Below are positions 8,696-43,873 of a stretch of DNA of 64,000 nt, piece by piece. Origin of the DNA: Victivallales bacterium (lineage in GTDB: Bacteria > Verrucomicrobiota > Lentisphaeria > Victivallales > UBA1829). Position numbers and translations under genes: made by a program. A model generated the notes under the pieces. That model ran no database searches, was not told the origin of the DNA, and saw only the letters and a program-made list of their open reading frames with translations. The stretch spans positions 66,190 to 130,189 of the forward strand of contig JAZNPK010000010.1 in the NCBI GenBank assembly GCA_045589595.1. Reading direction: 5' to 3'. Numbering within the stretch: position 1 is the stretch's first letter; the number at the start of each line of letters is the position of its first letter.

Positions 8696-8765
8696 GAAAA
8701 TACAAAAAATCCTGTTCGCGGTTTGCTGCCGGGAACAGGATCGTTTTATCCGTCGGGGAGGGGGA

Positions 8766-9608
8766 TTATTTTTCGAGGGCATCCACCACACATTGCTGGA
8801 TGAATTTACCGACGGAGTATTCCTTCCGCCGTTCGACCTCTTTCTGTGCCGCTTCCAGTGTGGGGATGTTGAATAAGACCCGGTATTCTCTTGCAGGCAT
8901 GTAATACCAGACCTTCTTTTCGATCCCGTCGATCTGTTCCGCCGTGGCGCCGAACGCATTGAGAATACTGCGTGCGATCAGTTTATCGCCGGAAAATGCC
9001 GTATTGCGTCCGTTGTCCTGCATCAGTTTGTTTTTATAATCCCGGGGATTTTTGACGTTCTGATACGAGTTCGTGATGAACGCCATCATCTCCACATTGA
9101 CATCAGCAAGCCGGTATCCGCGTTCTTTGGCAAAGGAACGGAGCCATGCACTGTATTCCGCCAGACGCTTGTTGCTTTTGTATTTGGGATCTTCCGTAAT
9201 GATGCCCGGGGTGAGGACCATGATCTTGATCCCCGCTTTTTCCACTTTGAGCAGCAGATCCGCCATTTCTTTTTTATACTGTTCCAGCGGTGTATCCTTG
9301 CGCCAGATGGCATACCAGATATCGTTGACGCCGCAGCTGAGAAGCATCCAGTCCGGCTTTTTGGAGATGACATCTTTTTCCACACGGGCGTTCATCAGCG
9401 GGGCAGTCTGTCCGTTTCTCCCGGCATGGATCACTTTGATATCCACACCAATGGATTTCAGACCTTCTTTTATCAGGGGGATGTAGTTGCCGACATTGTC
9501 GTTAAAAAATGCGACGCTTTCGCCGTTTTTGATCGCAAGCCCTTCCGCCGCCGAGAGATGCAGAGCCGCAGCTGAAAACAAAGTAAAAAGGATGGTTTTG
9601 ATTTTCAT
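8766..9608 (-). CDS. Secreted SGNH/GDSL-fold protein, paralogue 1, with catalytic Ser and His apparently replaced
   Basis: Signal peptide MKIKTILFTLFSAAALHLSAAEG (start at the ATG at 9608). It aligns along its length with paralogues 2 and 3. Block I reads FFNDNV instead of GDS, and block V reads DNGR instead of DGxH. Block III GVND is kept. Confidence 0.85.
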   Translation of the reverse strand: MKIKTILFTLFSAAALHLSAAEGLAIKNGESVAFFNDNVGNYIPLIKEGLKSIGVDIKVIHAGRNGQTAPLMNARVEKDVISKKPDWMLLSCGVNDIWYAIWRKDTPLEQYKKEMADLLLKVEKAGIKIMVLTPGIITEDPKYKSNKRLAEYSAWLRSFAKERGYRLADVNVEMMAFITNSYQNVKNPRDYKNKLMQDNGRNTAFSGDKLIARSILNAFGATAEQIDGIEKKVWYYMPAREYRVLFNIPTLEAAQKEVERRKEYSVGKFIQQCVVDALEK

Positions 9609-10477
9609 TTCTGATCTCCCGTGTTGGAAATATTCAGGGCTTTGCCCACACATTCACGGATGAACTGATCCGGTGTGATGCCGCGCTCCGCACAGATTTT
9701 TTCCAGTTTTTCGATCTGGGGCGTATTGAGCGTGATCAGTTGGCTTTTGCAGGGGATGTAGCGCCATGTGTTTTCTTCTGTCTTTCTGATCTGTTCTTCC
9801 GTGACGCCGAACGCCCGGAGGATGCCGCGCGCCATCATCTTGTTGCCATCCACCCCCATGTGGGTGCCGTCACTGGTCAGGATATATCCGCGGCGGTCCG
9901 GTTCTTTCGCCTTGACTTCGGTAATGATCTTTATCATATCCGCGCTCAAGTCGGCAAGGAGATAACCCCGTTCCTTTGCGATCTGACGGAGCCAGTTATT
10001 GTACGGGATCATATTTTTATTGAATTCGCCATTGACATTTTCCGTGATCATGGTGGCGGTGAGGATCATGACCTTGATCCCGGCTTTGTCCACTTTGTCC
10101 AGAAGTTCAGTGATCTCTATTTTGAATTTATCCAGCGGGACGCCCCGTTTGCCGTGCCAGACATCGTTGACGCCGCAGCTCAATGTCATCCACGCGGGAC
10201 CTTTTGCGATCACATCCCGTTGGACTCTGCCGTTCATGTTGATGGATTTGTGTCCGGATACACCGGCGGGGATGGGGGTGACATTCACGCCCGCATCTTT
10301 CAAACCGGAAACGACCAGATGCAGGTAGCCGTAGGGATTTGACCAGCCGCCATAAGTGATACTGTCGCCGAGAAACGCAATACTGTCGCCATTTTTAATG
10401 GGCAGTTCCGCCGCGCTGACCGCACATGCCGCTGTCAGAAAAAGGAGCGTGGCGGAGAGAAAATTTCTGATTTTCAT
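9605..10477 (-). CDS. Secreted SGNH/GDSL hydrolase, paralogue 2
   Basis: Signal peptide, then block I FLGDSITYGG, block III SCGVND and block V SDGTHM. There is a 4-nt overlap with paralogue 1. Confidence 0.87.
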   Translation of the reverse strand: MKIRNFLSATLLFLTAACAVSAAELPIKNGDSIAFLGDSITYGGWSNPYGYLHLVVSGLKDAGVNVTPIPAGVSGHKSINMNGRVQRDVIAKGPAWMTLSCGVNDVWHGKRGVPLDKFKIEITELLDKVDKAGIKVMILTATMITENVNGEFNKNMIPYNNWLRQIAKERGYLLADLSADMIKIITEVKAKEPDRRGYILTSDGTHMGVDGNKMMARGILRAFGVTEEQIRKTEENTWRYIPCKSQLITLNTPQIEKLEKICAERGITPDQFIRECVGKALNISNTGDQK

Positions 10478-10498
10478 GATCCGTTTTTCCTGTTGATG

Positions 10499-11356
10499 TT
10501 ATTTGTTGATTTTCAGTTCTTTCAGTACACATTCGCGGATGAAGTCGGCAGCTGTGATCCCTCTTTCATTGCAGAGCTTTTCCATTGCCTGCAGTTCAAG
10601 ATTGCTCAAATGGACTTTGTTTTCCGCCGCGGGGAGATGATCCCAGACATTGCGCCGGACTTTTTCGATCCGTTCCCCGCTCACGCCCAGAGCGCGCAGA
10701 AGACCCGTTGCCATCATCTGATCGCCCAGATGATTCATGTGGACGCCGTCGCGGGTGTAGATGCGGCGCGGAGTCCCGTTTTTCTCCGCTTCTTCTTTTG
10801 CCGCAGTGACAGTGCGGATCATTTCCGCGTGCAGGTCCGCCAGAGGCAGATCCCGTTCTTTCGCAAATGCCCGGAGCCAATCGCAGTACAGCCCCAGTTT
10901 TTTGTTGTGTCCGTATGCCGGATTTTCCGTGATCATCGTGGGGGTGAGGATGATGACTTTGATCCCGGCAGCTTCACATTCATCCACAATGGCAGTCACT
11001 TCTTTCTTGTATTCGTCCAGCCCGACGCCCTTCGTATGCCAGACATCGTTGACGCCGCAGCTCAATGTCATCCACACGGGCTTTTTGGAAATGACGCTGC
11101 GTTTCAGGCGTGCGTGCATATCGGTTGATTTGTTTGCGGAAACACCGGCAGGTATGACCGAGATGTTGATCCCTGCATCTTTCAGCGCTTCCACCGTAAG
11201 CCGGATGTAGCCGCCCGGTCTGCTCCAGCCGTAGTTTGTAATGCTGTCGCCCATAAAAGCAACGCTGTCACCATCTTTGAAGAGGATTTTTTCTCCGGCA
11301 GCCAGCGGCAGAAGAAGCGCGCTGCACAGAACGACGGCAATTTTTTTCAACAACAT
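10499..11356 (-). CDS. Secreted SGNH/GDSL hydrolase, paralogue 3
   Basis: Signal peptide, then block I FMGDSITNYG, block III SCGVND and block V RDGVHMN. Confidence 0.87.
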   Translation of the reverse strand: MLLKKIAVVLCSALLLPLAAGEKILFKDGDSVAFMGDSITNYGWSRPGGYIRLTVEALKDAGINISVIPAGVSANKSTDMHARLKRSVISKKPVWMTLSCGVNDVWHTKGVGLDEYKKEVTAIVDECEAAGIKVIILTPTMITENPAYGHNKKLGLYCDWLRAFAKERDLPLADLHAEMIRTVTAAKEEAEKNGTPRRIYTRDGVHMNHLGDQMMATGLLRALGVSGERIEKVRRNVWDHLPAAENKVHLSNLELQAMEKLCNERGITAADFIRECVLKELKINK

Positions 11357-11565: not shown

Positions 11566-13503
11566 ATGAACCTGAAAAAAATGTTCCTGACCTGTCTTGC
11601 CATCGGGACCGCGTTGACCGGAGCCGCCGGACAAAATGCGCCCGATGTGCCGGAAAATACCAAGATCGTCAAAGCCGCATTCGGCGATGCCCCGGCTGAA
11701 GTGCGGTCCGATTTTTATTCCATCCCGGAAGGAAAAGCCGTTCCGCCCAGTTCCTTTTCGGCGAAATGCGACATGACGGGCATCACGTTCTCCATCCGGT
11801 TTGCTTCTGCAGACGGATCCCCGATCCCGGATACCCGCAACGCCCTTGAATTTTATTTTCAGCCCATGGAACTGGAACATCCCCTGCAGTATTATCAGTT
11901 CTACGGTATTCTGCGCAACGAAGCGCCCTGTCCGGAATCGATCCGCGGCAGTCTGACGGATCTCGGGATCCCGTGGAATCCCAGCCGCGATATCGCGCCC
12001 TGTTACTACTATTATCAGGCTCCGCCGGAACAGTTTCCCTATCTGCGTCATTATCAGGTGCAGACGGTCTATCAGAAAGATGCAGTGGATATAACCATCT
12101 TTATTCCGTGGTGCGAATTTGTGACCGTTCTTCCCTTTGATGAAAACGGGAAAGGCAAAGCGTGGCGGTTCAATGTTGCCCGCGCTATCGGGAACGACCT
12201 CTTCACGTGGCAGGGAAATCTCCACAGACACAAAACATGGGGTTTGCTCCAGTTCCCCGATCTGACCGCGGATCAGGTCAAGGCTCTGTACCGGAACGCC
12301 ATTCTGCAGATCTGTGATGCCGGACCGTGGCTGCCGCGCTGGAACTTCAAACGGAGTTCCATTCCCGCCGGCAGAGAAAAACTTTCCGCCGAACTCAAAC
12401 AGCGCAAAGCACAGATCCCCGCCGATCCCGCCGCCCTTTCTGTGAAGGAATGGAAAGATCTTGCCGTGGATACCCGTTATGTGGCAGGCGGCAGACGACA
12501 TATCGTCAGCTGGAACAGCCGGGAGAAAGAACCGGAAAAATCCGGCTGGACAAAGTCTTACAACAAGGCGGAAAAGAAACTCACCTGGACTTATACTTTC
12601 ACCAAACCGGTCACAAACGGCTGGTTCTCCGATGTGGAACTGCACGCACACCGGAACAAAGAAGTCGGCGCTGTTGAGATCGAACTGGATGGAAAGAAAG
12701 CCCCTGCCGGTGCGCGGCATTGGCAGTTCGGTGCGGCAAAAGCCGGTTCTGTTCTCCGGATCACTTACTCCAATACGGTATCGAACGGTATCGGTGATAT
12801 CTGCGACCTTTACGGCGGTCTGCTCCCGGTGGATCCCTCAATCAGAGATTCCAGAACGGCGCTTGAACCTCTCCCGACACGCGGCGGCGGTATCCCGACT
12901 CCGGCGTTTATCTGTCATCATACAGAAAACAGTCTGACGATCCTGCGGAAACGCCCCAAAGTCATCTGGTACGGCGGCGCGATGCTGAACGGATTGGGGT
13001 TCCGTAAATCTCTGATCGAATTTGATAAAAAATACGGTTCCATCAACTGCGGCACTGTGAATGACGGCGGACAGCAGCGCAAGACCCTCTGGCGTATCGG
13101 CAACAGCGTGATCGATGAGGTCAAACCGGAATATATCGTGTTCCAGACCGATGTGTCGAAAGGCGCCGTTCCCGTTGTGGAAGAGATCTTCAAACTGATC
13201 CACAAGATGAGCCCCGATACAAAGATCATCGCCATTTCCTGTATGCCGGGCAAACGCAACGCTGCCATCCGCAAGCCGGATGAAGAATATATCGTCTTCA
13301 ATGAAGAAATGAAAGCCGTTGCCGGAAAACTCAAGGACTATGTGCGCTATATCGATCTCTCCGGAGATTTCTACGATAAGGACGGCAGACTGAAAACCGA
13401 ACTGATCGCGACACACTCCATCTATTACGCCGATTGCATCTATCAGCACTGGTGCGACGCCGTTGCTGAGATCATCGAGAGCGACAGAAAAAACGCGAAG
13501 TAA
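11566..13503 (+). CDS. Secreted 645-aa protein with an unassigned N-terminal region and an SGNH-like C-terminal region
   Basis: Signal peptide MNLKKMFLTCLAIGTALTGAAGQ. The C-terminal ~200 aa resembles an SGNH/PAF-acetylhydrolase-like fold (EYIVFQTDVSKG..., IIAISCMPG). I find YGGAML where a GDS block would be expected, so activity is uncertain. Confidence 0.65.
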   Translation: MNLKKMFLTCLAIGTALTGAAGQNAPDVPENTKIVKAAFGDAPAEVRSDFYSIPEGKAVPPSSFSAKCDMTGITFSIRFASADGSPIPDTRNALEFYFQPMELEHPLQYYQFYGILRNEAPCPESIRGSLTDLGIPWNPSRDIAPCYYYYQAPPEQFPYLRHYQVQTVYQKDAVDITIFIPWCEFVTVLPFDENGKGKAWRFNVARAIGNDLFTWQGNLHRHKTWGLLQFPDLTADQVKALYRNAILQICDAGPWLPRWNFKRSSIPAGREKLSAELKQRKAQIPADPAALSVKEWKDLAVDTRYVAGGRRHIVSWNSREKEPEKSGWTKSYNKAEKKLTWTYTFTKPVTNGWFSDVELHAHRNKEVGAVEIELDGKKAPAGARHWQFGAAKAGSVLRITYSNTVSNGIGDICDLYGGLLPVDPSIRDSRTALEPLPTRGGGIPTPAFICHHTENSLTILRKRPKVIWYGGAMLNGLGFRKSLIEFDKKYGSINCGTVNDGGQQRKTLWRIGNSVIDEVKPEYIVFQTDVSKGAVPVVEEIFKLIHKMSPDTKIIAISCMPGKRNAAIRKPDEEYIVFNEEMKAVAGKLKDYVRYIDLSGDFYDKDGRLKTELIATHSIYYADCIYQHWCDAVAEIIESDRKNAK

Positions 13504-25272: not shown

Positions 25273-25742
25273 AACAACGCTCCTTTTTTGTTTTACTGCA
25301 GTATCGCAATTATTTATCTATCAGCCTCGTCAGAAAAGGAAAATGAAACAGCGGCATCCGCGGGATCAGGGCATTGGAATTATAATTCAACAAGCCGATC
25401 TGCGAAATATTCCCGCCGGATTTGTCAATAAAATTCGCCGCTCCGATGGATACACTGTCATACTCCCGGACAAGTGTTTTGTATCTTTCACCTTTCCACA
25501 GGCAATATAATGCAGATAGTGATATATTGCAAACGGCTAAACACTCATTTTTCATTTTTACATCACGCAAACAGAAAGCGAATGCTTTACCTGTCAGGCG
25601 GAAATAAAGTACGGCTCCGGTGATTTCAGTGCCACTCCGTTAATAATCAGAAAAAAAGCGTTTTACAGCCTTGTCTTTTTCAGAAAATAGCTATCTTCTG
25701 AAAAACAAGGTGGTTATTTGTCAATCAAAAAGGAGAAGTATA

Positions 25743-25964
25743 ATGAGTTTGTCTAAGAAGATTCTGGTGCTTTTTGCACTCCTGGTATGCGGCGCTTTGT
25801 GTGCTGGCGTTGAAAGCGATCCGAAAGAAACCGTAAAGAGGTATCGTAAAGCCGCAGAACAGGGAGATGCAAAGGTACAATACAATTTAGGGGTTCGCTA
25901 CCAAAATGGCATTGGCGTTGAAAAAGACCCGCAAGAAGCAGAGAAATGCTGGAGGGTGTTTTAA
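25743..25964 (+). pseudogene. Truncated Sel1-repeat (SLR) secreted protein, one repeat only
   Basis: AAAGGAG RBS plus the ATG at 25743. Signal peptide MSLSKKILVLFALLVCGALCAG, then one Sel1 unit (AAEQGDAKVQYNLGVRYQNGIGVEKDPQEAEKCW). The frame stops 3 codons after entering repeat family D at about 25950. Confidence 0.55.
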
Positions 25965-26162
25965 TTCATCGGAATATTTCTCTCAAGCTCAAAATGGTTG
26001 CTGACAATGCAAACTTGCTGAACTATGCCGTTTCTTCGGAAAATATCTCCAAAAGCATAAAAATAAAAACAGAGAACGGCTTTTACCTCAAACGAAATAT
26101 CTGTAAATTCCGCAGAAATAAAAACCGCCCCGGAAAATAGTCGCACCACCGACATTTATTTA
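25950..26162. repeat. Repeat family D, copy 1 (~213 bp)
   Basis: It aligns with 33952-34165 at roughly 75-80% identity by eye, with two 3-nt indels. It starts with (T)GGAGGGTGTTTTAATTC and ends with CCGACATTTATT. Confidence 0.7.
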
Positions 26163-26183: not shown

Positions 26184-26378
26184 AATGTCCGGGAACTCGC
26201 CCGTGCCATCGGCAAGGATATGGCGTATGTTTCCCGGATTACCCGGCTCACGCTGCTGTCGCCGGAAATCATCCACGGCGTCCTCACCGGGCAGTTGGAC
26301 CAAATCGGCGTGGAAAAGTGCAAGCAGCCTTTTCCGATTTTATGGGATGAACAGAAAAAGTTTTTCGGCATCGAGTAA
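26184..26378 (+). pseudogene. C-terminal HTH fragment of a recombinase/ParB-like protein
   Basis: My own translation: NVRELARAIGKDMAYVSRITRLTLLSPEIIHGVLTGQLDQIGVEKCKQPFPILWDEQKKFFGIE*. It resembles the ...SYISRVLRLTLLAPDIVEAILDGRQ...LPxxWxEQR tail that I recall from serine-recombinase-family proteins. No N-terminal catalytic part is present. Confidence 0.4.
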
Positions 26379-26425
26379 CGCGCCCAGCGTTTTGCGGTAG
26401 GAATTATCCTGCCGCCCTTTTTTGT
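26358..26425 (+). repeat. Repeat family A, copy 1 (last codons of the recombinase-type gene plus its terminator hairpin)
   Basis: AAGTTTTTCGGCATCGAGTAACGCGCCCAGCGTTTTGCGGTAGGAATTATCCTGCCGCCCTTTTTT matches 30874-30938. Confidence 0.7.
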
Positions 26426-26463
26426 CGTACAGCATTTTTTTGCATTTTTTATGATATACATAC

Positions 26464-26529: not shown

Positions 26530-26934
<405 letters not shown>

Positions 26935-26955
26935 CACACAAAGGAGCTTGAAATA

Positions 26956-27885
26956 ATGGCAACCCCAAAAAAGCAAAAAAACATTGCTGCTGCAACAAAT
27001 GCAGGTACACCTGAAAAAGATGCAGGTACACCAGCAAAACGTGCAAGAGATAGTATCCAGGAAGAAGTTGATCAAATCCTTAAATTTAAGAGCGAAAAAG
27101 ATTGGGGCGATTTCCTCCGAAAGAAGGGCGAGGGACACAAAATTTATTATCATTACACCACGCTGAAAACATTGAAGGCGATCTTTACAAGTTCCGCTTG
27201 GAAACTGAAACGGGCTGATCTTTCCAATGATCCGCTGGAAAATCCGGTGCATAATACCTCTTTTGTCAGCAGATCTTTGAGTTCCATGGGGATGTGGGAA
27301 ATGTATTCCAAACTTTCTGCGGATGATGATATCGGGGTACGGATCGGGATCCCGCAAAAGGAGTTCCGGGAAATTTTTGCCGAAGATTCTGTTTTTTACA
27401 CGATGGATCCCAACGGAAACCTGCAGCCGTTCGGCAGTAATACACCTGTTATTTGTGACATGGCATATTGGCATTTCGGAAAAGATACAGGAAGTTCTCT
27501 TGCGTTCTACCGCAACTATGAATTCCCGGGCAACGCTTTGAATTTTCATTTTGAAAATGAAGATCAAATGCAGCAGATCGGTAAGAAACTGCCGCCGTTT
27601 TTCAAAACTGCGGTCTGGCGGAAAGAGGATGAAGTCCGGGTTTATGCAGATTTTTCCAATGAAAGAAATGTTCCGGATGAACTTTTCGTAAAAATCAAAC
27701 CGGAGCATTTCAAGGAAATGTCCTTCCGCCTCTCTCCGGCAGTTAAGAATTCAAAAAAGATGGCAGAAATACTGAAAAAGCAGGAAATGACTGAAGTATT
27801 ATTTTTCCTGATGTTCAAATTGCTTTGCAACGAATTGAAAGTCAGTCAATTTCAAATGCCGAACCAGTATGAAGCCTGGCAGTGA
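26956..27885 (+). CDS. DUF2971-like protein
   Basis: KIYYHYTTLKTLKAIFTSSAWKLKRADLSNDPLE matches the DUF2971 N-terminal signature as I recall it (YHYTs...l.a..l..NDP.E), with a later WRKEDEVRV element. AAGGAG RBS. Confidence 0.65.
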   Translation: MATPKKQKNIAAATNAGTPEKDAGTPAKRARDSIQEEVDQILKFKSEKDWGDFLRKKGEGHKIYYHYTTLKTLKAIFTSSAWKLKRADLSNDPLENPVHNTSFVSRSLSSMGMWEMYSKLSADDDIGVRIGIPQKEFREIFAEDSVFYTMDPNGNLQPFGSNTPVICDMAYWHFGKDTGSSLAFYRNYEFPGNALNFHFENEDQMQQIGKKLPPFFKTAVWRKEDEVRVYADFSNERNVPDELFVKIKPEHFKEMSFRLSPAVKNSKKMAEILKKQEMTEVLFFLMFKLLCNELKVSQFQMPNQYEAWQ

Positions 27886-27949
27886 TGAAACTTTTGAACA
27901 AAAAAATAACACATACAAAAAAATGTAAGATAGGAGTTGTTTCTGTAAA

Positions 27950-29473
27950 ATGAACTGCAAAGTAAAAAAGACATTGGTCCTGCTGGGGCTTGCTCTGGCG
28001 GTGACGCTCGGGTTCTGCGGATGCGGTCCCTCGGAAGAGGAAGTGTATGAGATCCTTGGTCGCGTCGAACAAAAGCAGAAAAAGATCAAAGAAGCAAATC
28101 TGAGTATGGATCAGGGATTTCAGGAAAAATTGGACCTGTTGGAACGGCAGTTTACATCTGCAAACCGTGCTTTTTCCAAAGGGGATTACAGTGCCACCGC
28201 AAAATTTCTGCAGGATGCGGAATCCGCCGCAGACTGGATCATGAGTCGCGGTCCTCTCCGTTACGAAGCGGATGAAAAATACAGCGAACTGCAAAGCCGG
28301 AAGAGGTACAGCAATTCTAACGAGATCAATGCTCCGAAATATGCCTCCACAATTTATGCGGAAGCGGAAAAATACGAACAGCAGGGACGGGAAGCCTACG
28401 AAAAAATCGAATTCGAGGAAGCGACCCGGTTGTATGTTCTTGCCACAAACGAATACAAAAAAGCTACTTCCACCGCCTCGGCATTTCATGCGGCAGTGTA
28501 TGAAATGAATGCCGCCAAAGAAAAAGCGGATAAAGAAAAAGCGTCTCAGTTTGCCTCCACGATTTATCAGCCCGCTTTATCTCAGGTACTGTCGGCGATC
28601 AAAGCAAATGCACAGGGGCGTTATGATGAAGCTTTGCAGCTGTTGGAATCAGCTGAAAATAAACTTGAAAACGCAGCAGCAACTGCATCACGGTTCACCG
28701 CAGCTCAACAAAAAGCCAATTCCGCCAAAGAAAAAGCAGAAAAGGTGAATGCTTTTCTGTGGGCATCTGCGATTCATCAAGAGGCTCTTTCTTATTCGCA
28801 ACGAGCAGCGAAAGCACATGCACAGGGAAAATATGATGAAGCATTGCAGTTGCTGGATGCGGTAGAAGGGACTTTTGAAAAAGCAGAAAAAGAAGCTAAA
28901 AAAAATATTTCGTTGCCTATTATCAAATCCCTTGTAAAAATTGAAGAAAAAGACTATTACATTGGCAAATACGAAGTAACTCAGGCGCAGTGGAAGGCGG
29001 TAATGGGGAACGATCCCGCTCACTTCAAAGGTGCAGACCGTCCCGTGGAGAACGTCAGTTGGCACGATGCTATGGAGTTTTGCGAGAAACTGAATGATTA
29101 TGGTTATGCACCCCGCGGTTACAAGTTTTCTCTGCCCACAAAAGCCCAGTGGGAATTTGCCGCCCGTGGGGGGAACTTGAGCAAGGGGTATGAATACAGC
29201 GGCAGTAATGATATCAATGAAGTTGCATGGTATCGTGATAATTCCGGCAGGCAGACCCATGATGTGGGCGGAAAAAAGCCCAACGAACTCGGTTTGTATG
29301 ATATGAGCGGAAATGTACAGGAGTGGTGCTTTGGCGGCTTCAACCCCTGCCATATACGCGGGGGCAGTTGGCGCGACGGCGCGGGCGGCTGCCAAGTGGC
29401 GCACGGCGACTACGACCCGGGCTACGAGTACCCCTACCGCGGCTTCCGGCTCGCCCTTGTCCCGGTTCAATAA
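27950..29473 (+). CDS. Lipoprotein with three ~90-aa helical repeats and a C-terminal FGE-sulfatase (SUMF1/C-type-lectin-fold) domain
   Basis: Signal/lipobox ...AVTLGFCGCG. The motif [AS]S[TA]I[YH]...A.G.YDEALQLL is repeated. The FGE domain shows YYIGKYEVTQAQW, PVENVSWHDAMEFCEKLN, LPTKAQWEFAARGG, YDMSGNVQEWC, RGGSW...GFRLA. Confidence 0.85.
   Translation: MNCKVKKTLVLLGLALAVTLGFCGCGPSEEEVYEILGRVEQKQKKIKEANLSMDQGFQEKLDLLERQFTSANRAFSKGDYSATAKFLQDAESAADWIMSRGPLRYEADEKYSELQSRKRYSNSNEINAPKYASTIYAEAEKYEQQGREAYEKIEFEEATRLYVLATNEYKKATSTASAFHAAVYEMNAAKEKADKEKASQFASTIYQPALSQVLSAIKANAQGRYDEALQLLESAENKLENAAATASRFTAAQQKANSAKEKAEKVNAFLWASAIHQEALSYSQRAAKAHAQGKYDEALQLLDAVEGTFEKAEKEAKKNISLPIIKSLVKIEEKDYYIGKYEVTQAQWKAVMGNDPAHFKGADRPVENVSWHDAMEFCEKLNDYGYAPRGYKFSLPTKAQWEFAARGGNLSKGYEYSGSNDINEVAWYRDNSGRQTHDVGGKKPNELGLYDMSGNVQEWCFGGFNPCHIRGGSWRDGAGGCQVAHGDYDPGYEYPYRGFRLALVPVQ
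29357..29455 (+). other. DGR variable-region-like segment at the 3' end of the FGE lipoprotein gene
   Basis: Composition switches abruptly to a very GC-rich, A-poor stretch. 18 of the 24 codons between GGSW and GFRLA are NNC (cgc gac ggc ... tac cgc ggc), as expected for diversified AAC codons. No template repeat or RT was found in the window. Confidence 0.4.
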
Positions 29474-29740
29474 AAAGATATCCTCATAATCTTTGAGCTA
29501 AAACGGAGTGTCTGAAAACGCTCCAGATCCGGGCAATAGCGGGAGCTGCATCGGGGATTTGTATTGCATTCCCAGCAGTCAAGTCAGTCTGTGTTTTTTA
29601 TGAGTCTTATAAGTCCTGATAAGTCTTATTTGGGTAATGCAAGCTTCAAACGAGCGATACACCCAAAAAAACGGGGGCGGACAGGTGCGGCAGAGCAGCT
29701 CATCCGCCCGCCCTCAGGCGTCTGTGCAAACATTGATATT

Positions 29741-30217
29741 ATGGAGAGAAAAATGAAACAAGCGATCCTGTTATCGGGGGTATCTCTGGTTGTGTCGGTC
29801 TTTTTCTGCGGATGCGGAAATGAAGCCGAAAAAACGGAAGGGAACGGCGTTGATACCGTTGAGATCAATAAAAAGTGGAAGGAGATGGTCCGACCGGCAG
29901 CACGCCGCAGCCGTCTGGAACGGGATTCGGTATCTGTGGTCAATCAAATCATCAGAGAAAATCCCGGAAAGATCAGAGGTCATTGTACCCGGGTGGAGTT
30001 AACAGAAAAACTTTCAGATAAAAAATGGAAGGGGTTCGCCCACCTCGATAACGGAAAAAAGTTGACCTGTTATGTGACCGAATCCTTTTCCGGAATCGAG
30101 GTGGAAGTGGAATACGAGGAGAAAGTAGAATACATGGAGAAATACGAGGAGAAAGTAGAATACGAGGAGAAAATGGAATACGAGGTGAAAGTTGCTGTTC
30201 CCGTCTGGACATGGTAA
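29741..30217 (+). CDS. Small lipoprotein with an acidic VEYEEK-type C-terminal repeat
   Basis: I chose the ATG at 29741 (or 29753). Signal/lipobox ...VVSVFFCGCG, the same F-C-G-C-G as the neighbouring gene. The C-terminus reads EVEYEEKVEYMEKYEEKVEYEEKMEYEVKV. Confidence 0.55.
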   Translation: MERKMKQAILLSGVSLVVSVFFCGCGNEAEKTEGNGVDTVEINKKWKEMVRPAARRSRLERDSVSVVNQIIRENPGKIRGHCTRVELTEKLSDKKWKGFAHLDNGKKLTCYVTESFSGIEVEVEYEEKVEYMEKYEEKVEYEEKMEYEVKVAVPVWTW

Positions 30218-30285
30218 AAAAGGTTTTTCGGAGGGTAACGATTGCTTTCTCAACAGCACGCTGAAGGCGTGCGGGAGATCTCCGG

Positions 30286-30885
30286 TCAGAAGTTGAAGTA
30301 GATAAAGGGGGAGACCTTCACGAAGAAGAACATCGGCACGATCAGCAGAAGGATCGTCAGGATGGCGTTGACCCATGTGGGGCGGAATTTTTCCTCCATA
30401 TCCACCGCCGGTTTCAGGAAGACAATAATAAATCCGCCCGCGATCAGAAACAGCAGACCGCGTACATCAAACGGTGCGGGCAGACTCCATGATTCGGGGC
30501 AGAACATAGCGGAAAGCAGCTGCTTCACCTGACTCATATCCGTTGCCCGGAAGGGGATCCACGCCAACAGCACAAAAAGGAACGTGATCAGCTTTGCGGG
30601 GATGCGGTGCATCTTCAAGCCCAGGAACTTACTCCAGATCCGGTGGATCACCAGCGCCGTCCCGTGGAGCATCCCCCACAGAACAAAGAGCCAACTCGCC
30701 CCGTGCCACAACCCGCTCACAAAGAACGTGATCAGCAGGTTCAGACAGTTCGGAACTTACCGCAGCGGTTGCCGCCGAGGGGAATGTAAAGTCCGGTCAT
30801 GAGGAAGCGTCCCAGCGTGATATGCCACCGCCGCCAGAAGTCGGCAATATTTTCAGAAAGATACGGCGAATGGAAGTTTTTCGGC
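30286..30885 (-). pseudogene. MBOAT-family (AlgI/DltB-like) O-acyltransferase remnant, 5'-truncated and frameshifted
   Basis: My own translation gives ...MPKNFHSPYLSENIADFWRRWHITLGRFLMTGLYIPLGGNRCGK. A 1-nt frame change near 30725-30745 follows, then NLLITFFVSGLWHGASWLFVLWGMLHG (conserved MBOAT His) to the stop at 30286. Everything N-terminal of this is missing at the junction with repeat family A. Confidence 0.75.
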
Positions 30886-30938
30886 ATTGAGTAACGCGCC
30901 CAGCGTTTGGCGGCAGGAGAAATCCTGCCGCTTTTTTG
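30874..30938 (+). repeat. Repeat family A, copy 2 (orphan gene tail plus terminator hairpin)
   Basis: AAGTTTTTCGGCATTGAGTAACGCGCCCAGCGTTTGGCGGCAGGAGAAATCCTGCCGCTTTTTT. It contains a perfect hairpin GCGGCAGGA/TCCTGCCGC followed by T6. Confidence 0.7.
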
Positions 30939-30957
30939 CGTTTTAAGAAAGATAAAC

Positions 30958-33234: not shown

Positions 33235-33563
33235 TTACAAATTTTCGATAATTTTCTGTAAGTGTCGGGGATTGTGGTATTTTCAGTTTGTAGCAAACTT
33301 TTTGAGATTTTTTCAAGGTTCAAGTATGGTCATTTTTAGTGTATTTGACTCGACCCCCGACTATTGTTTTTGATGATTTTACGCTCAAAAGTATGATTTT
33401 TGAGAATTTTTCCACAGTTTTTTATAAAGGTCTTTGCAAAGGTCGGATGGGAAATTCTCTGTTTTTTATGGCACGAAACGGAGAATTTGGCTCTATTGCA
33501 CCGTGTGTTTCTGTAACTTTTTAATCTCTAAAATCTTACATATAAAGCAATACATAAAGGTCG

Positions 33564-33660
33564 CCGACCTTTACATAACAGAGAATTTTCGCAAGATTTA
33601 TGCAAAACACACCCGATTTTGAGAATTTACCGTTTGATGAAAGCTCTGCCGCAATGGGTT
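33564..33660. repeat. Repeat family C, copy 1 (~97 bp)
   Basis: CCGAC.TTTACA.AACAGAGAATTT.CGCAAGATTTATGCAAAACACACCCGATTTTGAGAA..TACCGTTTGATGAAAGCTCTGCCGCAATGGGTT is almost identical to 36226-36321. Confidence 0.78.
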
Positions 33661-33729: not shown

Positions 33730-33950
33730 ACTTCACACGCGGAGCGGCTTCACAAGTGCAATGAAGCGACAGCGTAATGAAACGACTTCATCCGCCGTCG
33801 CTGAAGGCTATGGCGGGACAAGCAAGCGAGGCTTCCCGGAATTCGTGAAGATGTGAAGAAAACCTTTGGTTTTGAGTGAAGAGCGGCTGGCGCCGCGTGA
33901 AGAGAAGCCTTGCGGCTTCGTGTTTTTTGCCTTGTGATCAAGGCAAAAAA
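33730..33950. repeat. Hairpin-array element (family E), copy a, GTGAAGA variant
   Basis: A short motif (GTGAAGA four times, plus CTTCAC/ATGAAGC variants) alternates with unrelated perfect hairpins (AAAACC/GGTTTT, GCGGC/GCCGC, GAAGCC/GGCTTC). It ends in an A/T-clamped hairpin TTTTTTGCCTTG-TGAT-CAAGGCAAAAAA. Confidence 0.7.
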
Positions 33951-33951
33951 A

Positions 33952-34165
33952 TGGTGGAGGGTGTTTTAATTCTTCGGAATACTTCTCTCAAGCTCAAAAC
34001 GGTTGTCAACAATACAATCTTGTTGAACCGTTTCACTTCTTCGAAAAACATCTCCGAAAGCATAAAAATCAAAACAGAGAACAGTTTTTACCTTAAAGTA
34101 AATGTCTGCAAATTCCGATGAAATAAAATCCGCCCCGGAAAACGGTCGCATCGCAGACATTTATT
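33952..34165. repeat. Repeat family D, copy 2
   Basis: See 25950-26162. This copy directly follows hairpin array a. Confidence 0.7.
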
Positions 34166-35891: not shown

Positions 35892-36225
35892 AAGGGGATT
35901 TTCCTTTTAGATACGTTTTGTTAATGTCCCAAATTTTGTGATGGGACGGGTTATTTGACAAAAGTGCATCTGACCTTTATTTTTTAGTGACCAAACAAAA
36001 AAATAAAAGGCAGCATCAGATACGCAGTAAAACTACTATGAAAAAGCCGATTTGTCAAGCGGAAAATGAAATTTTTGGGGGACGAATTGGTAAAAAAGTG
36101 GCAGATTCTTATAAAAAGAAGGCTTTCGCCGATATTTTGAAGATGAACTTGCAGTTAACTCAAGAGGTTTTGATGTACTGTATTTTTAACTAACGCTTAA
36201 CAAAAGAACTCCGCATAAATGACTG

Positions 36226-36321
36226 CCGACATTTACAAACAGAGAATTTCCGCAAGATTTATGCAAAACACACCCGATTTTGAGAAAATACCGTTTGATG
36301 AAAGCTCTGCCGCAATGGGTT
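36226..36321. repeat. Repeat family C, copy 2, abutting the stop codon of the four-helix-bundle gene
   Basis: See 33564-33660. Its last bases overlap the TAA (36322..36320 on the minus strand). Confidence 0.78.
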
Positions 36322-36680
36322 ATTTAAGATTCTGATTCGTGGTGTTGATTGAGGCGATCAGAGTTATTCTGATTTCCCGGCAGAGAGTTTCCAACCGATC
36401 ATATTCTGCAGAAGAGAGGATATTTGTTTTTCCCAATAGCAGCAGCCAGTAGCTTGTTTCATTGGCTTCTTTCAAGGCAATTTGCAGTTTTGAAACAAAA
36501 TCAGCTTTCCCGTGAGCATATTGCGCTTCGTGGATGTTGGCTCCGATACTTGTTCCGGCTCTGCCGATTTGATTGCAGATGATCGTTTCTCTCTGTTCTT
36601 TCAGATATTTTACAAGATTCAATAATTTCAACTGCAAATGCAATTGAAAGATCGACAAGTTTGTTTGACGATTTTTCCAT
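36320..36680 (-). pseudogene. Four-helix-bundle protein (23S rRNA IVS protein / DGR Avd family), apparently frameshifted
   Basis: The ATG at 36680 gives MEKSSNKLVDLSIAFAVEIIE... in one frame. A second frame gives ...LVKYLKEQRETIICNQIGRAGTSIGANIHEAQYAHGKADFVSKLQIALKEANETSYWLLLL... to the stop at 36320. The frames must be joined near 36610-36625 to give a normal family member. Confidence 0.7.
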
Positions 36681-36799
36681 GACAGATTTTTCCTTTCCAC
36701 TGAATAATGTAGCATTGGTAAGGAATATTTGCAAACACAGCTCTCATTTTTCATTTTTTCATCATCCGTCGCACGAAGTGCTATGGATGACAGGTCATA

Positions 36800-37063: not shown

Positions 37064-37140
37064 TGGTGGGCGTTGAGGGACTCGAACCCCCGACATTCAC
37101 GGTGTAAACGTGACGCTCTAACCAACTGAGCTAAACGCCC
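37064..37140 (-). tRNA. tRNA-Val (anticodon TAC), CCA encoded
   Basis: Hand-folded cloverleaf: GGGCGTT/AACGCCC acceptor, GCTC/GAGC D-stem, TCACG-TTTACAC-CGTGA anticodon arm, GGGGG-TTCGAGT-CCCTC T-arm, and ACCA tail. Confidence 0.95.
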
Positions 37141-43450: not shown

Positions 43451-43873
43451 ATGAAAAAAACAATGATGATCGGAATTACTCTGGCGGCGATCTTTTCCGC
43501 CGGAACCCTTGCCGCACAACAGACAACCTACCGCAGCGGCTCCGGCTCCTTCACCGGAACTGCCACAAAACAGGGCTCACAGACCACATACCGCGGTTCC
43601 TCCGGACAGTTCAAGGGAACTGCTACTGAACGGGGAAATACAACGACCTACCGCGACAGTTCCGGGCGTTTGAAAGTGACCGCCACCAAACAGGGAAATA
43701 CAACGACCTACCGCGACAGTTCCGGGCGTCTGAAAGCGACTGCCACCAAGCAGGGAAATATGACGACTTACCGCGATGCGTCCGGTAAATTGATCAAAAC
43801 AGAGACCCGGTCCGGCAGACAGACCATTTACCGCGATGCATCCGGCAGAGTGATCGGCACCGCGACAGACTGA
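43451..43873 (+). CDS. Small secreted protein made of ~6.5 tandem 20-aa repeats (YD-repeat-like)
   Basis: GGAGG RBS plus the ATG at 43451. Signal peptide MKKTMMIGITLAAIFSAGTLAAQ, then repeats of TTYRDSSGRLK.TATKQGN. The DNA period is exactly 60 nt (43621/43681/43741 in register). Confidence 0.65.
   Translation: MKKTMMIGITLAAIFSAGTLAAQQTTYRSGSGSFTGTATKQGSQTTYRGSSGQFKGTATERGNTTTYRDSSGRLKVTATKQGNTTTYRDSSGRLKATATKQGNMTTYRDASGKLIKTETRSGRQTIYRDASGRVIGTATD

Follow-up and report, generated by a model that had tools for sequence, protein, structure and literature searches.

A probable orphaned variable region of an HRDC-type diversity-generating retroelement in a Victivallales genome

The target gene and its C-terminal tail

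A 64 000-nt stretch of DNA from a Victivallales bacterium (assembly GCA_045589595.1, contig JAZNPK010000010.1, positions 66 190 to 130 189; the whole stretch is called the window below, and positions are given in its coordinates unless another locus is named) contains a gene for a 507-aa protein whose 3' end looks like the variable region (VR) of a diversity-generating retroelement (DGR). In such systems the VR of a target gene is rewritten from a template repeat (TR) with the help of a reverse transcriptase (RT). A sequence-only reading of the window had drawn attention to the tail of this gene. The features of the gene are the following.

27950..29473, plus strand: DGR target gene, 507 aa, intact open reading frame (ORF) (ORF list; Pfam; PDB sequence match; synteny)
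27950..28030, plus strand: N-terminal signal sequence whose end is a conserved FCGCG, a probable lipobox (near-invariant in homologues)
28508..28886, plus strand: stalk in which an alpha-helical repeat of 210 nt (70 aa) is present twice (repeat families D9 and D10)
28919..29470, plus strand: predicted FGE-sulfatase/C-type-lectin-fold domain (Pfam PF03781; alignment to TvpA)
29336..29470, plus strand: putative relic VR, derived from the template TR1 that is described below (alignment to TR1 of loci L009 and L015)

The signal sequence (MNCKVKKTLVLLGLALAVTLGFCGCG) shows almost no variation in the alignment of homologues, and the FCGCG motif is also present in a small lipoprotein encoded nearby (29741-30217). 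The 507-aa protein is probably a lipoprotein and would be located at the cell surface. Its stalk differs in copy number among alleles, as seen from insertions and deletions of repeat units in the homologue alignment, and gives weak matches to TPR and YfdX in Pfam. The FGE-sulfatase domain (PF03781) spans aa 324-487 (E = 3e-29, Pfam search), and the best match by sequence to a solved structure is TvpA (2y3c, E = 5.9e-32), the variable protein of the Treponema denticola DGR; the alignment to TvpA reaches through the RGGSW...GFRLA tail. These matches agree with the FGE/C-type-lectin fold that had been proposed for the C-terminus, and the domain is assigned to this fold on the strength of sequence similarity. 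Conservation among homologues is strong as far as RGGSW and resumes at GFRLALVPVQ; nearly every position in between varies, a fixed scaffold excepted.

The translation of 29357-29455 reads RGGSW RDGAGGCQVAHGDYDPGYEYPYRG FRLA. Between W and F, 18 of the 24 codons are of the form NNC, a count that reproduces the earlier one exactly, compared with 21.7% of the remaining 469 codons of the gene (binomial P = 4e-8 for at least 18 of 24). The sharp switch to a GC-rich and adenine-poor tail was also borne out: the GC fraction is 0.73 at 29350-29449 vs 0.32-0.55 in 100-nt segments further upstream in the gene, and the adenine fraction of the tail is 0.15 vs 0.32 upstream. The description of the gene as AT-rich over about 1.4 kb was not, since its overall GC content is about 45-50%.

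It could be argued that a GC-rich block of NNC codons reflects ordinary conservation and codon bias of an FGE C-terminus, no retroelement being involved. RGGSW and GFRL are general features of FGE-sulfatases (they are aligned in FGE-family structures), and about 17 other places in the window also reach at least 16 NNC codons out of 24 in some frame. NNC richness is therefore not unique within the window and the case must rest on more than composition, even though GC and adenine content break sharply within the same gene. Comparison with related loci, presented next, bears directly on this explanation.

A template for the tail in related Lentisphaeria

Loci L001 to L020 were fetched from relatives, which are gut (ruminant-gut) Lentisphaeria metagenome-assembled genomes (MAGs). 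In L008-L012, whose target P0133 is a paralogue or orthologue of the window's gene, the gene order is a 293-aa gene, the FGE target, an HRDC gene, an RVT_1 RT gene, a 136-aa lipoprotein gene and, on the minus strand, an MBOAT gene. L015 (contig JAGAPM010000345.1, a Lentisphaeria MAG from water-deer cecum) likewise has target, HRDC, RT and TR. The small lipoprotein and MBOAT genes situated 3' of the cassette are those found in the window, and this synteny makes the 507-aa gene the positional orthologue of the targets that adjoin the cassette in L008-L012 and L015. The cassette proteins were identified by their HRDC (PF00570, E = 3e-15) and RVT_1 (E = 8e-23) domains, the latter with IGNLTSQ and YMDD motifs; the HRDC gene overlaps the RT gene. 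In L009 the AAC-rich template, TR1, lies at 13050-13185, where it occupies the 3'-terminal part of the RT reading frame, with GSNRVIRGGSWNNNANNCQVANRNNNNPDNRNNNNGFRLALVPAQ as its in-frame product. An identical TR1 (1747-1881) belongs to the full cassette of L015. The cognate VR/TR1 pair of L009 shows 21 mismatches at adenines and 1 elsewhere. In L008 (4473-13194) the target-HRDC-RT unit is present twice, in inverted orientation on one contig, which reflects either a true inverted duplication or an artefact of assembly.

The clade possesses a second DGR at another locus (L016-L020; 6596-11110 in L016), composed of a 928-aa Ser/Thr-kinase-FGE target, HRDC, RT and a template called TR2. Its RT is 84% identical to that of the first DGR. 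TR2 differs from TR1 at 12 sites, and the VRs cognate to TR2 have 1 non-adenine mismatch.

The target family is DGR-diversified, the variation among homologues being restricted to the adenine codons of the template. Column entropy in 44 distinct canonical tails averages 2.86 bits at TR codons with A at position 1 or 2 vs 0.63 bits at the others (Mann-Whitney, P = 9e-9). Within one cluster (>90% identity), the last 60 of 490 columns contain 21 of the 38 variable ones; this concentration of variation in the VR indicates that diversification is recent or ongoing in part of the family.

The tail of the window's gene was compared with TR1 of these relatives, hence with a template from other genomes. 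There are 22 differences at adenines and 10 at other bases (out of about 40 adenines and 94 others; Fisher's test, P = 8e-8), while a codon-aware alignment made by hand gives 24 adenine and 8-9 other differences. The residues at AAC positions are all encoded by NNC codons reachable from AAC, and the unmutated TR1 codons ATA and CAA are kept. Because the mismatches to the relatives' TR are adenine-specific, the tail qualifies as a real VR, which the alignment traces to TR1. The sequence-only reading had correctly placed it at the C-terminus, but its proposed extent (29357-29455) was too narrow: homology to the relatives' TR extends it to 29336-29470. TR2 was also considered as donor and was ruled out because the number of non-adenine mismatches is higher (20 vs 10 for TR1); at the sites separating the two templates, the window's VR has the TR1 states. 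As for the explanation by ordinary FGE conservation and codon bias, the adenine specificity of the mismatches to the actual TR of syntenic relatives and the confinement of family variability to TR adenine codons effectively refute it, and its probability is close to nil.

The cassette is missing from its usual site

Two further features follow the stop codon of the target gene.

29474..29549, plus strand: conserved post-VR segment with the 5' arm of a long interrupted inverted repeat (alignment to relatives)
29550..29738, no strand: putative deletion scar of about 190 bp (colinearity with L009 and L013)

The post-VR segment is 95.7-98.6% identical to the segment that intervenes between VR and HRDC in L004-L012 and L015. 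Immediately after it, about 1.8 kb of L009 (11552-13369: HRDC, RT and TR) is not represented in the window. Colinearity ends at 29549 and resumes at 29750 with L009 and at 29739 with L013. The matching segments of the window and L009 are listed below.

Window 26704-28286: L009 8758-10376, 88% identity
Window 28948-29329: L009 10891-11272, 83% identity
Window 29353-29549: L009 11350-11551, 85% identity
Window 29550-29738: no counterpart in any fetched locus
Window 29750-30121: L009 13370-13741, 82% identity
Window 30163-30886: L009 13717-14441, 93% identity

The cassette is absent from its canonical site, and the breakpoint lies at 29549/29550. The window corresponds to L009 up to ...ATCCGGGCAATAGCGGGAGCTGC; at this point L009 completes the interrupted inverted repeat, beyond which come a terminator and the HRDC start codon, and the window departs from it exactly where the repeat would be completed, so that the breakpoint halves the repeat. 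The predicted folding energy of the 145 nt past the stop codon is -34.3 kcal/mol in L009 (z = -7.4) and -14.7 kcal/mol in the window (z = -1.1). The half-palindrome left at the junction argues for a deletion in the window, not an insertion in the relatives, and the homology of the post-VR segment to the cassette-bearing arrangement indicates that the locus descends from a cassette carrier. We infer that the event was loss, and not gain, of a cassette.

The absence of a TR and of an RT from the window, pointed out by the sequence-only reading, was confirmed by several searches. Short-word blastn and a scan with a degenerate VR-or-A pattern (at most 3 mismatches) revealed no TR-like partner in the 64 kb other than the VR itself; tblastn with the relatives' proteins revealed no RT or HRDC remnant there (best E = 0.7; positive control E = 0); and the relatives' cassette DNA matches only the VR in the window. 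Among the RT homologues and their cluster members, none lies on a contig of 132 760 bp, the length of the contig that holds the window. None of the constituents of a complete DGR, i.e. a cognate TR, a DGR-type RT and an adjacent Avd or HRDC gene, is found within the window.

Several relatives also lack the cassette. In L001 the target is followed by 146 bp and then MBOAT; in L004-L007 the interval is about 500 bp and includes a partial second VR 3' end; in L013 and L014 a Sel1-repeat gene occupies the cassette's site. Since the cassette-less alleles each have a different junction, loss appears to be recurrent: different deletions seem to have removed the cassette independently on several occasions. 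The 450-aa gene at the cassette's site in L013 (2920-4272) was considered as a possible degenerate RT; this was ruled out, since it consists of 10 Sel1 repeats. A 97-aa ORF of the window (25671-25964, plus strand) has a single Sel1 repeat match and is possibly a fragment.

Two peculiarities of L004 can be mentioned here. The partial second VR 3' end, together with a post-VR element, lies 3' of the target (11930-12035), as if left behind by a rearrangement. In the main VR, the 3' end has TR2-like bases (GGG TTC ... CTC GTC CCA GCT CAA), which hints at past cross-homing or recombination.

An inverted repeat 3' of the VR, as present in the intact relatives, is also known from the DGR of Bordetella phage BPP-1, where hairpins of that type have 7-10 bp stems and 4-nt GRNA loops and are situated 4-34 bp from the VR (PMC3240598). 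The repeat of the Lentisphaeria loci differs in that it begins about 50 nt past the stop codon and has an 11-nt loop. Because of this misfit in distance and loop, and because a similar element lies 3' of the unrelated Sel1 gene in L013, we do not claim that it is a DGR hairpin/cruciform recognition element, and a role in homing would be hypothetical.

Erosion of the variable region

VRs with and without an adjacent cassette were compared with the nearest TR.

L009, TR1 cassette adjacent: 1 non-adenine mismatch, 0 gap columns
L016 and L020, TR2 cassette adjacent: 1 non-adenine mismatch, 0 gap columns
L001, no cassette: 2 non-adenine mismatches, 0 gap columns
Window, no cassette: 10 non-adenine mismatches, 6 gap columns
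L013, no cassette: 10 non-adenine mismatches, 3 gap columns
L004, no cassette: 19 non-adenine mismatches, 3 gap columns

The gap columns of the window's VR correspond to two 3-nt indels, a TGC inserted near 29348 and a scaffold CGG codon lost near 29405. An Arg found in 43 of the 44 family tails is gone, and Glu is present where 35 of the 44 have Arg. Relative to cassette-adjacent VRs, the window's VR is evidently eroding, as judged from these differences.

The cassette-less alleles P0014 and P0005/P0007 each have one and the same VR in many contigs and samples, including cases where other parts of the protein are not the same, and the cassette-bearing cluster contains several VR variants. Sampling is uneven, but invariant VRs in cassette-less alleles fit with freezing after loss. 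Carriers of the window's own deletion junction were searched for in JGI metagenomes, with 0 matches.

Possible histories of the locus

The segment 29336-29470 is, with good probability, an orphaned DGR VR whose cassette was deleted and which is now eroding. The sequence-only reading had left the choice between a current and a former VR, with its cassette elsewhere or lost. That it is a DGR VR and that the cassette is gone from its canonical site both stand; the option of a former VR with a lost cassette is favoured over that of a current VR served from elsewhere, because the normal site of the cassette is deleted with a mappable breakpoint and because erosion of this kind is unseen in cassette-adjacent VRs.

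The following scenario can be proposed. In the relatives, the RT would copy TR RNA into cDNA with misincorporation opposite adenines, and the cDNA would then replace the VR. Such rewriting would hit about 20 codons, predicted to form the ligand-binding face of a TvpA-like C-type-lectin/FGE domain carried on a helical stalk at the cell surface. The window's VR would have been written by such a process from a TR1-type template. A later deletion would have removed HRDC, RT and TR (about 1.8 kb) and left the breakpoint within the inverted repeat. Since then the VR would have behaved as fixed, ordinary coding sequence, gathering non-adenine substitutions, the two in-frame 3-nt indels and the loss of two Arg codons. 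The intact ORF presumably yields a surface binding protein with one frozen specificity; ligand binding by the 507-aa protein is a function suggested by its predicted fold.

The clade as a whole can be read as a decay series at one locus, with active members showing within-cluster VR variation (L008-L012 and L015), a freshly orphaned one (L001) and eroded ones (the window, L013 and L004). A different reading of the same alleles, that DGR targets have been repeatedly uncoupled from their cassettes and moved as separate modules, or that the window's VR is served in trans by an unseen cassette with a variant TR1, is on the whole unlikely.

Several observations weigh against the orphan interpretation. 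Some of them would be expected if the VR were still active and diversified in trans by a TR/RT cassette situated elsewhere in the same genome. The template and RT search covered the 64-kb window, and a remote TR1-like cassette could lie elsewhere, including in the other ~69 kb of the same contig. The VR of L001 is a near-perfect TR1-type VR (2 non-adenine mismatches) with no cassette within 10 kb, which means that trans-targeting or very recent loss does occur in the clade. The clade's second DGR is at another locus, and remote targets are known in the closest system, that of T. denticola (PMC4891356). Moreover, the non-adenine differences and indels could in principle stem from an unseen variant TR of this lineage.

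On the other hand, the VR and TR1 are of unequal length at two places, and scaffold codons are missing from the VR; homing from TR1 would erase such indels and restore the scaffold, so that their presence counts against trans-activity. The inverted repeat 3' of the VR is halved, every TR1 cassette seen directly adjoins the counterpart of the window's target gene, and TR2, which is the sole other template type found in the clade, fits the window's VR less well than TR1. None of the close RT homologues lies on a contig of the same length as the window's. A pattern matching the window's VR or a TR1-type template was detected in L015 only among 185 579 GTDB species-representative genomes (the window's contig is not among them), and in JGI metagenomes there were 0 matches to a VR or TR of the window's codon architecture, a weak negative given that most relatives come from ENA/Logan assemblies. 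Diversification in trans is thus considered distinctly unlikely, and the genome presumably contains no cognate cassette at another site.

The remaining contrary observations concern the place where the VR was written. Identity between the window and its closest relative, L013, is 98-100% in the flanks; from about 28680 it drops from 93-100% to 79-88% through the FGE module, reaches 62-67% in the VR and returns to 98% downstream. FGE segments look mosaic among alleles (for example, the window's protein has EKLNDYGYAPRGYKFSLPT in common with P0018 and P0022 but not with P0004), and the syntenic block is bracketed by direct repeats in a rearranged context (see below). It may thus be that another lineage wrote the VR: the FGE domain with its VR would have been imported by homologous recombination from a DGR-bearing relative into an already cassette-less locus, without ever being diversified in the present lineage. 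This would alter the history only, the sequence being an orphan DGR VR all the same. In addition, the sequence between the VR and the breakpoint has its homologue in cassette-bearing loci, which points to descent from a cassette carrier, and no donor allele with the window's VR was found, its target forming a protein cluster of 1 member. Import is accordingly regarded as very improbable. The single-member cluster also means that the window's allele is represented by one sequence only, and freezing of the VR in this particular strain is deduced by analogy with its relatives, which is a further point to set against an orphaned and eroding VR as the preferred reading.

Comparison with known systems

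The HRDC-type DGR corresponds to 'Architecture C' of Wu et al., which is represented by the Treponema element (PMC5758913). Relic DGR targets are already known from T. denticola, and the window adds another case. In T. denticola isolates without RT and TR, target genes persist with VRs that depart from the TR of other isolates mostly at adenines, and these genes were considered as remnants by the authors (Nimkulrat et al. 2016, PMC4891356); this is the same situation as in the window. The TvpA system resembles the present one in having a lipoprotein target with a C-terminal FGE-type C-lectin fold, an HRDC accessory gene and a VR at the extreme C-terminus within an RGGSW...GFRLA scaffold. It differs in phylum (Spirochaetes vs the Lentisphaerota gut MAGs analysed here) and in gene order, since its accessory gene lies between TR and RT (PMC4891356) whereas the Lentisphaeria order is target, HRDC, RT, TR, with the TR in frame at the 3' end of the RT gene. 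The Lentisphaeria target also bears a stalk of 70-aa helical repeats, unlike that of T. denticola. Finally, in the window both the breakpoint and the post-loss erosion (indels and lost scaffold Arg codons) are resolved at the nucleotide level.

With the BPP-1 DGR (Mtd/Avd/TR/Brt) the Lentisphaeria system shares adenine-specific mutagenic retrohoming from TR to a C-terminal VR, a target with a C-type-lectin fold and an AAC-rich template. Its accessory protein is HRDC and not Avd, and its locus is chromosomal and not phage-borne.

No new mechanism is revealed by the locus. It provides a nucleotide-level view of the death of an HRDC-type DGR, cassette deletion being followed by ordinary decay of the VR scaffold, and synteny with relatives shows precisely what was lost and where. 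For annotation, this means that, in the absence of a TR or RT, codons with a DGR-style signature do not justify the label of an active DGR target. The graded sister alleles could serve to estimate the erosion rate of orphan VRs and the frequency of cassette loss in gut bacteria.

A four-helix-bundle gene near the locus

The sequence-only reading had also reported a frameshifted Avd-family gene about 7 kb away from the VR.

~36320-36715, minus strand: intact generic four-helix-bundle gene, 131 aa (TIGR02436, PF05635), next to a tRNA gene (37067-37140, minus strand)

The gene exists and, as reported, neither TR nor RT was found near it in the window searches, but no frameshift is visible in it, and it is not a DGR Avd. 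Its single-frame 131-aa reading matches TIGR02436 'four helix bundle protein' (86.5 bits, profile positions 8-108 of 109) and PF05635 (23S_rRNA_IVP, E = 8e-22), whereas the alternative-frame peptide on which the idea of a frameshift was based matches nothing. TIGR02436/PF05635 is the wider family that contains Avd; the gene fits this family and fails the DGR-specific Avd model NF033474 (16.5 bits for a cut-off of 80). Together with the use of HRDC by the clade's DGR, this score rules it out as the Avd of a DGR. The four-helix-bundle gene is unrelated to the orphan VR.

Surrounding block and other repeats

Downstream of the putative deletion scar, the syntenic block is completed by two features.

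29741..30217, plus strand: small lipoprotein gene, conserved 3' neighbour of the cassette (tblastn with the 136-aa protein of L009, E = 1e-61)
30289..30887, minus strand: truncated and frameshifted MBOAT remnant, end of the syntenic block (tblastn)

The small lipoprotein gene has 97.7% DNA identity to L013 and, relative to the 136-aa homologue of the relatives, possesses additional tandem repeats of 18 nt (EYEEKV-type). Only aa 258-457 of the 457 of MBOAT are matched by the remnant, in two frames that join near 30750. MBOAT is intact in L009 and in L013; as the latter is the closest relative (98.5% DNA identity in this part), the truncation is recent.

Synteny with the relatives' DGR locus is confined to a block of about 4.2 kb (26640-30886). 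The other neighbours of the L009 locus (DUF4910, HD, 379-aa and 487-aa genes, GNAT) are not found anywhere in the window, which indicates that the block sits in a rearranged context. It is bracketed by direct repeats of about 70 nt that are 88% identical (26358-26428 and 30874-30941), the second of which sits exactly at the end of the MBOAT homology. In each repeat, the final 21 nt of a plus-strand ORF (...KKFFGIE*) are joined to an intrinsic terminator (GCGGCAGGA-loop-TCCTGCCGC and then a run of T). Upstream of the first copy, the frame closed by this stop codon (...ITRLTLLSPEIIHGVLTGQLD...) resembles the C-terminus of a recombinase, which makes it a candidate for a recombinase-like gene.

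A (GCAA)n microsatellite of about 29 units (26650-26765), a candidate phase-variable repeat, lies upstream of a 309-aa gene; L009 has a GCAA array of about 17 units at the same position (8758-8825). Short tandem arrays built from other units are found in front of the small lipoprotein or MBOAT gene in L001, L004 and L013.

Two dispersed intergenic repeats are located in ORF-poor stretches of the window. The first (25938-26160 and 33943-34165) is 223 nt long with 83% identity between copies; the second (33553-33660 and 36214-36321) is about 108 nt long with 93% identity and abuts the 3' end of the four-helix-bundle gene. Elsewhere in the window there are three tandem paralogous units spaced by about 850-880 bp (9189-11184), a coding array with a 9-15-nt periodicity (1748-1892) and a coding repeat with a 60-nt period (43522-43866).

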